Below, piece after piece: positions 2,795-4,027 of a stretch of DNA of 6,929 nt. Positions within the stretch are counted from its first letter, which is position 1. Each line of letters begins with the position of its first letter. The position numbers and the translations under genes are program-made. A model generated the notes under the pieces. The model made no database searches, was not told the origin of the DNA, and saw only the letters and a list, made by a program, of their open reading frames with translations. The DNA lies in the IMG/VR virus record IMGVR_UViG_2751185958_000012; one strand, given 5' to 3'. Source of the stretch: a virus (Duplodnaviria; Heunggongvirae; Uroviricota; Caudoviricetes).

Positions 2795-3446
2795 GTATTA
2801 TCCGGCGGTGTTTGAAGCAGAAGCTTTTAATTGCCCTCACTGCGGTGTATATGCCCGTCAGTTCTGGCGTAGTATGTATGGTAATTCGAATGTGCTTGCG
2901 GTCAAATCAACTGAGTTCCGAATGTCAACATGCTCTCATTGTGGTGAAGATGCCTATTGGTATCAGGGCAACATGTTGATCCCTGCGGCTGGCAATGTTG
3001 AACTCCCAAACCCAGACATGCCCGATGACTGCAAGTCAGACTATATGGAAGCTAGAAGCATCATTAATCTGTCTCCTAAAGGCGCAGCAGCACTCCTTCG
3101 TCTTTGCCTCCAAAAGCTAATGGTCCACTTAGGCGAACCGGGAAACAACATTAATGCTGACATTCGGTCACTCGTCCAGAAAGGACTACCTGTACGCATT
3201 CAGCAGGCAGCAGACATCTGTCGTATCGTTGGCAATCAGGCGGTCCATCCAGGAGAGATTAGCCTTGATGACGACCCACAGTTGGCACATGGTCTCTTTA
3301 AGCTGTTGAACATTATTGTCACTGAGCAGATTACCAGACCGAAAGAAATTGAGGCTATGTTCCAGAGTATGCCTGAAGGTCCACGCCAAGGTATTGAGAA
3401 TCAGGACAGACAGGCGAGGGAACAGCAGCAGGCTGCTAATGAATAA
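2787..3446 (+). CDS. Zinc-ribbon plus DUF4145-domain protein, 219 aa
   Basis: The start ATG overlaps the integrase stop by 8 nt (aATGGCTGA). The N-terminus has CPHCG...CSHCG (CxxC x29 CxxC). The C-terminal region [28 protein letters not shown]...[10 protein letters not shown]...[17 protein letters not shown] matches my recollection of the DUF4145 pattern (R..GN.a.H). The tail is Q/E/R-rich. Confidence 0.8.
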
Positions 3447-3465
3447 AACCCACACTATAGGGGGA
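3443..3465 (+). promoter_or_regulatory. Weaker T7-type phage RNAP promoter-like site (site A), predicted +1 G at 3460
   Basis: ATAAAACCCACACTATAGGGGGA aligned to T7 TAATACGACTCACTATAGGGAGA. The core CACTATAGGG (-7 to +3) is identical. An A at -8 is also seen in the K11-type promoter as I recall it. The upstream half is divergent. The site overlaps the stop codon of the DUF4145 gene. Confidence 0.4.
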
Positions 3466-3471
3466 AGGGGG

Positions 3472-3494
3472 ACTAAACTATCACTATAGGGAGA
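3472..3494 (+). promoter_or_regulatory. T7-type single-subunit phage RNAP promoter (site B), predicted +1 G at 3489
   Basis: ACTAAACTATCACTATAGGGAGA versus T7 consensus TAATACGACTCACTATAGGGAGA. All 14 positions from -8 to +6 are identical (TCACTATAGGGAGA). Positions -12 to -9 read ACTA, versus CGAC in T7 and ACCC in T3. An exact 22-nt copy recurs at 4027..4048. Confidence 0.7.
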
Positions 3495-4027
3495 GACCCT
3501 AAGTCCCCCCGGCTTAATACAGCCACCGACCCACACATTCATTAAATCTCAGGCTTCCGGTAGCGGACCGATTGGAAACCATCCGCAATAAGCCTAGTGT
3601 TAAATCACCTTGGCCTGAGACCATTCCCTTTAACGTAGCAATCTCTCTCCTTTGACAGGCGGAGAACATCAGACCTCAGCGGAACTTCCGTCTATGAGAC
3701 CATCGGTGTGCGAGATTGTGAAGAACCAAGACATCATTGCTGAGGTCTGCCATCCATTGTGGACAGGCGGAAACTCAAAGAGGTTAGACCAGTAGTGGTG
3801 TCTGAGGTCGGACTTTGAGTCCTGACCAGCAGGCTGGAGGAGACCATGAGTTTATCTTGTTATGGATTGTGTTATCACAATTCCAATAAGAAGAACTTTA
3901 AGTCCAGCCTCCACTCCCGCCAACCCGAAGTAAACTATGGTCGCTATGATGTGGTCTCCATGCTTCGGGTCTTACTGGAAGTACTGAACACTTTCGCGTC
4001 AAGTTCTCCGAAGTTCATTCCTGTTTG
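3495..4027 (+). other. Untranslated, repeat- and stem-rich region downstream of promoters A and B; a possible phage-RNAP-made structured RNA or cis-acting replication/packaging region
   Basis: The only ORF is a doubtful 60-aa frame (3846..4028). TGAGACCAT/GAGACCAT occurs three times (3617, 3696, 3840) and GACAGGCGGA twice (3654, 3762). There is an 11-bp inverted repeat CAGACCTCAGC/GCTGAGGTCTG (3670..3680 / 3739..3749). A nested hairpin pairs AGGCTT...GCGGA..TGG-aaa-CCA-TCCGC...AAGCCT (3551..3595). ACTCAAAG/CTTTGAGT pair at 3773..3780 / 3813..3820. An AT-rich patch lies at 3846..3900. Confidence 0.3.

Follow-up and report, generated by a model that had tools for sequence, protein, structure and literature searches.

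Promoters and other features of the non-coding region

The window analysed here, that is, the whole 6,929-nucleotide stretch IMGVR_UViG_2751185958_000012, is Escherichia/Shigella-type chromosome, and it carries a damaged copy of an integrated island whose insertion starts at the 3' end of the tRNA-Gly gene glyU. About 900 nt of this island, at 3447-4364, are without a conserved open reading frame (ORF). This region contains a closely spaced pair of T7-group phage promoters, A and B, which are the main subject of this study, as well as a third promoter, C, and a structured element. The features of the region are as follows.

3443..3465, plus strand: promoter A, SRT7/Foetvirus type (AACCCACACTATA followed by GGG at the start), spanning -17 to +6 with +1 at 3460; 16-nt core exact to the SRT7 consensus.
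3467..3474, plus strand: left arm of an inverted repeat, made up of the G-tract spacer and -22 to -15 of promoter B.
3472..3494, plus strand: promoter B, K1F/EcoDS1 (Kayfunavirus) type, spanning -17 to +6 with +1 at 3489; match to EcoDS1 phi10.
3502..3509, plus strand: right arm of the inverted repeat, +14 to +21 of the B transcript; also able to pair with the 5' GGGA of B itself.
3534..3915, plus strand: conserved structured non-coding element downstream of A and B (24 distinct copies, RNAalifold).
4028..4050, plus strand: promoter C, K1F/EcoDS1 type, +1 at 4045; match to EcoDS1 phi6.5.

The sequence CACTATAGGG occurs exactly at 3453, 3482 and 4038, which places the +1 G of the three promoters. 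Site B (3470-3494) was identical to the phi10 promoter of Kayfunavirus EcoDS1 at 25 of 25 bases and site C to EcoDS1 phi6.5 at 22 of 22, and B and C have an exact 22-mer in common. EcoDS1 contains 11 sites of this class (0.34 expected), and hundreds of K1F-like (Kayfunavirus-like) phage records match the B-class promoter, at 8-10 places each. Site A reads AAAACCCACACTATAGGGGG; its core, AACCCACACTATAGGG, is exact to the consensus of Escherichia phage SRT7 (Foetvirus), which has 12 promoters reading ATTAACCCACACTATAGGGAGA, and the agreement over -13 to +3 is 16 of 16. A scan of IMG/VR with the 15-mer AACCCACACTATAGG likewise found many copies in one 39.9-kb contig, which is SRT7. A third class, TTAAACCCTCACTATAGG, is used 13 times in vB_EcoP-Ro103C3lw and is also present in GW1 and SFP20. 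A, B and C each have the form of a T7-group promoter, namely about 23 bp with a specificity segment at -12 to -8, GGG from +1, and a consensus that is repeated in a phage genome. As sequence matches, all three are far beyond chance.

A and B differ at the positions that set specificity. The class signatures are AACTAT in EcoDS1, AACCCT in Ro103C3lw and AACCCA in SRT7, with 11-13 uses per phage; the EcoDS1 and Ro103C3lw classes differ at -10/-9, which are contacted by polymerase residues 748 and 756, and the SRT7 and Ro103C3lw classes differ at -8, which is contacted by residue 758. The base-contacting residues of T7-like polymerases are R746, N748, R756 and Q758, of which 748, 756 and 758 are critical for specificity (PMC11880802). 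In the aligned C-terminal parts of the phage polymerases, residues 748/756/758 (T7 numbering, counted from the C-terminus) were N/N/Q in EcoDS1, D/R/Q in Ro103C3lw and D/R/A in SRT7. Each promoter class thus has a cognate polymerase whose specificity-loop residues fit it. A search for sigma-70-like promoters and intrinsic terminators between 3300 and 4500 found none.

In two relatives of the island, L008 (E. coli) and L011 (Shigella flexneri), foreign sequence lies inside promoter C at about 8035-8062 and replaces its upstream half; presumably this is an IS911-type end.

Conservation of the paired layout

Relatives of the island were gathered in two ways, by a search with a 329-aa protein that it encodes and by a search with a 21-nt motif from its non-coding region, and came from Citrobacter, Leclercia, Buttiauxella, Enterobacter, Shigella, E. 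coli and metagenomes. Among them, L001 (E. coli CFSAN064035, island at 2679391-2685764 of the record) is an intact relative, about 92% identical to the island of the window. The promoter cassette was compared in 24 distinct variants from E. coli, Shigella, Citrobacter, Leclercia, Buttiauxella and metagenomes, and 20 of these have two promoters 25-36 nt apart; in the window the +1 sites of A and B are 29 nt apart.

Most paired variants combine an upstream promoter of the ACCCT/ACCCA class with a downstream ACTAT promoter, L052, with two ACTAT-like sites, being an exception. The relatives mostly pair a GW1/Ro103C3lw-type promoter with a K1F-type promoter, whereas the window pairs an SRT7-type with a K1F/EcoDS1-type promoter; promoter A is retained in L001, L049, L054, L056 and L060. 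The upstream promoter is the variable one (ACCCA, ACCCT, CCCCT or CACCT) and varies by lineage, as if it were tracking the polymerase specificities of helper phages. A second promoter pair stands at the position of site C in L009, L013, L052, L059, L064 and L067. In the metagenomic copy L048, three promoters follow one another at 1071-1123 with a 26-nt period, one of ACCCT type and two of ACTAT type.

The spacer between the promoters is a G-tract of variable length. At 3461-3471 and in the relatives its longest G run ranges from about 4 to 12, with promoter spacings of 25 to 36 nt, and this hypervariability suggests slippage.

The spacing of A and B is as close as two such promoters fit without overlap. 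No promoter pair as close was present in the genomes of EcoDS1, Ro103C3lw and SRT7, which argues that the layout was not copied from a helper origin. The pair is best read as a two-input switch of dual specificity.

The inverted repeat around promoter B

Promoter B is enclosed by a perfect 8-bp inverted repeat (GGGGGACT at 3467-3474, AGTCCCCC at 3502-3509, 27 nt between the arms). The coordinates of its arms and both +1 positions had been given correctly by an earlier reading of the window from its letters (the sequence-only reading), which expected a transcript from A to begin with a stable 5' hairpin containing the B sequence. Such a transcript is predicted to fold, at -25.2 kcal/mol; the z-score is only -2.07, and covariation between the arms was not found in a 17-variant alignment, in which the 8 pairs formed in 82.4% of cells versus 81.3 ± 0.8% after shuffling. 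The observed pairing was reached by 77 of 500 shuffles of the 3' letters. A perfect repeat of at least 8 bp arose in 479 of 5000 (9.6%) dinucleotide shuffles of 3443-3510, and the repeat by itself is not beyond chance.

That the repeat has been selected, as a 5' hairpin with a regulatory effect on promoter B or on how stable the A transcript is, or as a DNA cruciform at an origin, is unlikely. In the A transcripts of all 16 paired variants, including those with a different right arm (L047 and L067 types), the G-rich start folds onto the C-rich B leader (-13 to -26 kcal/mol), which would fit a selected hairpin; G-rich starts and C-rich leaders are nevertheless expected for any two stacked T7-type promoters whose transcripts carry GGG...CCC stems. 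The outermost (eighth) pair is present in only 2 of the 17 variants, the right arm has two substitutions without compensation, the L008 type has another sequence in place of the left arm, the G-tract is hypervariable in length, and the arms pair at the level of column shuffles. The transcript from B alone also has a 5' hairpin, closed by the same C-run (-12.4 kcal/mol, z -2.9).

Most likely, therefore, the repeat is a by-product of stacking two promoters with GGG-start transcripts that carry 5' stems, as the local G- and C-runs, the lack of covariation and the chance-level shuffles all argue that it is incidental. At most, it may provide a protective 5' stem-loop that stabilises the A transcript.

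The structured element and the AT-rich patch

The element at 3534-3915 is nearly invariant among the 24 distinct copies, which come from several genera. RNAalifold predicted 112 pairs, many of them G-U, and found double (compensatory) changes in 11 pairs, all in 3634-3723 and none of these broken; one covarying pair has three types (AU in 11, UA in 8 and GC in 5 copies). The compensatory changes occur mostly as two haplotypes and thus represent few independent events. The plus strand folded better than the minus strand (-193 versus -175, with -140 ± 8 for column shuffles), which fits an RNA transcribed from A and B.

A scan of the whole window against Rfam (E <= 1) detected only the tRNA, leaving the element without a family, and a BLAST search of 3440-4395 against 50,697 phage records gave no match at E <= 1e-5, indicating that the region is not a phage fragment. 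One-base insertions and deletions among the copies argue against a conserved ORF across the element, and a 60-aa ORF at 3846-4028 is shortened in L001. The element is a candidate for a new functional RNA or an origin element. Within it, the 10-mer GACAGGCGGA occurs at 3654-3663 and 3762-3771, 108 nt apart; GACAGGCG is also present at 3409, and GACAGGCGG, nearly invariant among the relatives, could be a protein-binding site.

An AT-rich patch downstream of the promoters, pointed out at 3846-3900 in the sequence-only reading, was confirmed: its AT content is 72.7%, a value that no other 55-mer of the island portion of the window reaches. It forms a conserved 60-nt hairpin (about 3842-3904, -22.3 kcal/mol, z -4.6). 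Unlike the AT-rich DNA of the T7 primary origin, the patch is not adjacent to the promoters but starts 357 nt after the +1 of B, and the intervening sequence is structured and about 50% GC.

It is possible, although we hold this only tentatively, that the promoter pair and the downstream non-coding element together form a replication origin, in which helper transcripts from A or B would prime the helper DNA polymerase and the AT-rich hairpin would be the unwinding or transition point; this is compatible with the two-input switch. The island has no recognisable replication gene (see below), its promoters feed directly into its most conserved, structured and nearly invariant non-coding part, and the AT-rich patch is a strong conserved hairpin. 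In T7, every origin needs a promoter for the T7 RNA polymerase, and phiOR and phi6.5 are usable as secondary origins (PMC8373140). Phagemids based on T7 need only an origin, a packaging (pac) site and a terminal repeat for replication, packaging and transduction (PMC13236587, citing Chung & Hinkle 1990). For the latter two, natural counterparts exist in the island family, and the promoters could serve as the first. On the other hand, the resemblance to the T7 primary origin phi1.1A/1.1B that had been proposed earlier is not borne out, since A is of SRT7 type and B of K1F type and the AT-rich patch lies far from B. No similarity to any phage origin region was detected by BLAST or short-word BLAST, and the conserved G-U pairs and the better plus-strand fold point to a function at the RNA level; a primer or pre-primer RNA would agree with such a function, which is nonetheless no evidence for one.

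The capsid gene and the right end of intact islands

The 329-aa protein used in the search for relatives is interrupted in the window.

6225..6482, plus strand: first 85 codons of the gene for a 329-aa HK97-fold major capsid protein (AlphaFold2 and Foldseek), cut by an IS911-family element from 6483.

By word search the protein belongs to a narrow family, and profile search revealed distant relatives. A first structure model, built with 11 close homologues, was unusable (predicted local distance difference test score, pLDDT, 44), and an AlphaFold2 model with 36 distant homologues reached a pLDDT of 80.5. In a Foldseek search of this model against the PDB, 238 matches were obtained at E <= 1e-3, the best 50 of which were phage major capsid proteins, encapsulins, and nanocages derived from them; the capsid proteins among the best matches included those of phi29, T5/DT57C, Kp9, PhiM1 and others. 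These matches identify the protein as an HK97-fold shell protein. Sequence and profile comparisons with phage gp10 and the PDB gave nothing significant. Family searches of the island proteins had matches only for the integrase, Rha and DUF4145, and no recognisable replication, portal, tail or terminase gene was found on the island with Pfam and phrog families, so that the capsid gene is the sole structural gene recognised.

Directly 3' of the capsid gene in L001 (17949-17990), a hairpin followed by TTTATTTTG was seen by eye and was not called by the terminator scan; we take it to be reminiscent of T-phi, the terminator that follows gene 10 in T7.

Intact islands carry GACGATGAGTTTTG at their right end, a 14-mer that is exact in EcoDS1 and Ro103C3lw just upstream of the right terminal repeat. 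It is followed by GAGACC.CA and then TCT, between which the phage genome end falls. By our own count CCCCCATAG starts at base 26 of the repeat-like segment, compared with base 26-27 in the phages, and is followed by CAGACCAAAGG; the predicted terminus in L001 lies at about 18138 (TCTAATAT...). Positions 18085-18300 of L001 resemble the sequence before the repeat plus the first ~60 nt of a Kayfunavirus terminal repeat, and judging from this resemblance they are likely a terminase recognition and cut site.

Smith-Waterman alignments of four island variants with both complete phage genomes (EcoDS1 and Ro103C3lw, both strands) always placed the best alignment at the terminal-repeat junction, with scores of 37-60 compared with 26.3 ± 2.3 (maximum 35) for shuffles; the scoring right-end segment of this junction mimic is 18103-18200 in L001. 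Against the whole phage collection the mimic gave four weak matches, at least two of which (CR44b, annotated 'terminal repeat') fall on that boundary; a third match is about 130-220 nt away from a genome end. A candidate pause site for the concatemer junction (ATCTCT versus ATCTGT in the phage) was rejected, as it is not conserved among the islands.

The position of the mimic in the intact relatives places the predicted packaging signal at the right end of the island rather than at the promoter pair, where it had been proposed previously. That the pair with its inverted repeat is a pac signal, comparable to phiOR beside the T7 concatemer junction, is highly improbable. In most phage records the top-ranked BLAST matches of B with its flanks are near one genome end, in EcoDS1 and CR44b the top match is the promoter annotated at that end (labelled phiOR in EcoDS1), and by eye the downstream sequence AAGTCCCCCCGGCTTA resembles the phiOR leader AAGACCCCCGGTTA. 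Short-word BLAST against EcoDS1 ranks phi10 first instead. Moreover, when 3440-4400 was compared with the end and origin regions of the matching phages (BLAST, and Smith-Waterman on the ends of EcoDS1 and Ro103C3lw), there was no match beyond the promoters, and a pac signal at these coordinates was rejected on this ground. The sole phage-end-like sequence of the family (GACGATGAGTTTTG, the TCT..CCCCCATAG spacing and CAGACCAAAGG) lies at the right end, about 3.1 kb downstream of C.

Boundaries and other genes of the island

The remaining features of the window are given below.

145-900: actS/ygeR.
979-1052: tRNA-Gly(CCC) gene glyU.
1036..1052, plus strand: core of the left attachment site (attL), TCCCTTCGCCCGCTCCA, which is the 3' end of the glyU tRNA (tRNA detected; the 17-mer recurs as the right site, attR, in L001).
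1187..2794, plus strand: tyrosine integrase (Pfam Phage_integrase, E 3e-19, and phrog_1, E 3e-44, both on the L001 orthologue, which is 94% identical).
2787..3446, plus strand: RAZR/PD-T7-4, zinc finger plus DUF4145/HEPN RNase (PADLOC PD-T7-4, E 2.7e-102; Pfam DUF4145).
4365..5336, plus strand: Rha/Ant-family gene (Pfam Phage_pRha, E 3.5e-18, and phrog_10324, E 1.6e-69, both on the intact L001 gene).
5338..5529, plus strand: small ORF of 58-63 aa (63 aa here), its position kept in all relatives.
5650..6141, plus strand: 163-aa protein immediately 5' of the capsid gene, 85-95% identical among relatives.

In L001 the attR 17-mer lies 6374 bp downstream of attL, giving an island of 6374 bp, and the five complete copies, L001 included, measure 6350-6378 bp from attachment site to attachment site. 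Six ORFs are present in the intact island, and its relatives keep the same gene order. At least 80% of the island is present in about 122 complete E. coli genomes. In L054 the copy is integrated and bounded by the tRNA and flanking sequence. In L003 and L004 the island family occupies a second chromosomal site, which adjoins genes for a molybdopterin oxidoreductase, DUF1161, UPF0257 and an acetyltransferase domain. Contigs of ~6.4 kb with the capsid gene were considered as excised circles and rejected, being chromosomal fragments from the second integration site; terminal overlap was not found in the metagenome contigs carrying the island.

The copy in the window is damaged in two places. An IS911-family element at 6483-6929 truncates the capsid gene after codon 85, so that the window lacks the right end of the island together with the terminal-repeat mimic. 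The Rha/Ant gene is broken in frame at 4395-4634 by a 240-bp remnant of the IS3 family. This mini-element consists of the left 237 nt of the insertion sequence (IS) plus TCA, has the ends TGAACCGCC...GGCGGTTCA and is flanked by a 3-bp duplication, AAC; the in-frame insertion fuses the N-terminus of the IS orfA to the Rha/Ant protein (ORF 4449-5336). The window copy is probably dead as a mobile element.

Neither the small ORF nor the 163-aa protein matched a family in Pfam or the phrog profiles, and the latter had no similarity to phage gp9; a scaffold function of the 163-aa protein is suggested by its position, the sole pointer to it. A 14-nt palindrome, GCTAGCAAGCTAGC, occurs twice in the window, at 4103-4116 and 5504-5517. 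In L001 the first copy has an inverted loop (TT) and the second is absent, making the small ORF five codons shorter.

The RAZR gene overlaps the integrase gene by 8 nt. The PADLOC match is full length, spanning residues 1-209, and the translation keeps the catalytic residues R146 and H154 by our own count. RAZR is a zinc-finger/HEPN RNase that assembles around T7 and T3 portal rings and aborts infection, with R146 and H154 as catalytic residues (PMC13017515). PD-T7-4 was discovered by selecting for resistance to T7 and, in the words of its discoverers, 'often overlaps an integrase gene' (PMC9519451). The word 'satellite' does not occur in PMC13017515, and the only satellites named in PMC9519451 are P4 satellite prophages associated with other systems.

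The presence of a proven anti-T7 abortive-infection system beside the promoters raises the alternative that the island is a defence element, whose phage promoters would express interfering proteins (a capsid decoy, or Rha/Ant) or soak up phage polymerase in infected cells only. Dependence on a phage polymerase would make a clean infection sensor, and no terminase, portal or tail gene was recognised on the island. The terminal-repeat mimic, the constant length of 6350-6378 bp, the attachment sites with an integrase and the complete capsid gene are, in contrast, features of a packaged element, and in the parts of PMC9122126 consulted defence and satellite roles often coexist in known satellites. 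We regard a purely defensive role as quite unlikely.

Interpretation of the island as a phage satellite

The intact island, of ~6.37 kb, resembles a phage satellite with T7-like helpers and a capsid protein of its own, because it has a capsid gene and a terminal-repeat mimic without recognisable replication, portal, tail or terminase genes. Its integrase and attachment-site repeats bound a small element of fixed size, and it carries mimics of helper signals without a full set of virion genes, as satellites do. We consider it likely that A and B are promoters for the single-subunit RNA polymerases of two groups of T7-like coliphages and together form an OR gate at the head of this satellite island. 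The observations behind this reading are the identities to phage promoters, a paired layout that relatives conserve, polymerases that differ in their specificity loops, the structured element, the fold of the capsid protein and the mimic of the terminal repeat.

As long as no phage is present, the rightward half of the ~6.4-kb integrated island would be silent. Upon infection by either phage type, the phage polymerase would transcribe this half, and the first product would be a conserved structured leader RNA of ~0.5 kb. Transcription onward, boosted by promoter C, would reach the Rha/Ant-like gene, the two small genes and the HK97-fold capsid gene; in intact copies, read-through would arrive at the terminal-repeat junction mimic, where the terminase of the helper would make its cut and the island would be packaged. 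The suggestion in the sequence-only reading that phage signals had been hijacked is supported in this respect, as the promoters are genuinely of the T7 group and intact relatives have both the mimic and the capsid gene.

Several points weigh against this interpretation. Transcription, induction, replication and packaging are all deduced from nucleotide sequence. Promoter A deviates from the SRT7 consensus at the AT-rich positions -16 to -14 (TAA, not ATT), and the similarity of the mimic to SRT7 ends was not above background, suggesting that induction by an SRT7-type phage may not be followed by packaging. For the upstream variants AACCCCT and ACACCT, no IMG/VR viral contig with several copies was found, and some upstream sites may thus be decayed or may target unknown phages. 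A portal-triggered abortive-infection gene such as RAZR fits uneasily with a purely parasitic life cycle. Finally, in the damaged copy of the window the switch probably drives a dead element.

The most extended form of this interpretation is that the island seen here is a decayed member of an undescribed satellite family, ~6.4 kb in size, with virulent Studiervirinae as helpers and Enterobacterales as hosts. Such satellites would be fired by helper RNA polymerase through orthogonal OR-gate promoters, replicate from these promoters through the leader RNA, form their own small HK97-fold capsids, be cut and packaged at the repeat mimic, and carry RAZR. For this whole chain of steps we see the chances for and against as evenly balanced. 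Neither a satellite of T7-like phages or Kayfunavirus nor a chromosomal island with such promoters was found described in the literature searched.

If the interpretation is correct, reading a helper polymerase through stacked promoters of differing specificity would be a new induction logic for satellites and a natural case of orthogonal polymerase-promoter pairs wired as an OR gate. RAZR/PD-T7-4 would be carried by a mobile element in need of T7-like phages itself. A portal-sensing suicide gene on an element apparently needing such a helper would call for some way of reconciling defence with parasitism. The structured RNA of ~0.4 kb, which has no Rfam family, is a new candidate functional RNA in its own right. 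T7-like phages are among the best-studied and most widely used phages, in phage therapy, expression systems and directed evolution, and an island present in so many E. coli genomes could affect the outcome of therapy with them.

Comparison with known systems

The island promoters have the same 23-bp architecture and +1 GGG start as the class III (late) promoters of the Studiervirinae EcoDS1/K1F, Ro103C3lw/GW1 and SRT7. They differ from these in sitting in a bacterial chromosome, on an integrase-bearing island, and in combining two or three specificities per cassette, which the genomes of EcoDS1, Ro103C3lw and SRT7 do not.

In the primary origin of T7, phi1.1A and phi1.1B share one specificity, lie about 75 nt apart and are directly followed by an AT-rich region. 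The island resembles this origin in having two close phage promoters followed by untranslated DNA with an AT-rich stretch, and dependence on the phage polymerase is plausible (PMC8373140). Its promoters, however, have differing specificities and are 25-36 nt apart, and its AT-rich patch lies inside a structured element, so that neither the shared specificity nor the AT-rich region directly downstream is found.

Like PICMI, PLE and P4, the island is a small integrated element for which replication, packaging or both would depend on a helper, and according to the portions of the literature consulted PICMIs and PLEs use virulent helpers. None of the three is reported in those portions as switched on by promoters for a helper polymerase. 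P4 remodels the capsid of P2 with Sid. The island has no sequence relationship to any of these elements.

With the capsid-forming phage-inducible chromosomal islands (cfPICIs) it shares the integrated state and an HK97-fold capsid protein of its own. The cfPICIs are larger, exploit temperate siphoviruses and have genes for a portal, connectors, a protease and terminase subunits as well. The island, by contrast, is 6.4 kb long, none of the six ORFs of the intact copies matches a portal, head-tail connector, protease or terminase subunit, and its cues point to virulent T7-like podoviruses.

The island also resembles the engineered T7 phagemids and transducing plasmids (Chung & Hinkle 1990, cited in PMC13236587), small circles that the phage replicates, packages and transduces, in having natural counterparts of the pac site and the terminal repeat and promoters that could act as the origin. 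The distance from promoter to repeat is about 560-610 nt in the phage and about 3 kb in the island. Unlike the phagemids, the island is natural, is integrated at a tRNA gene, and carries its own capsid protein and a defence gene.

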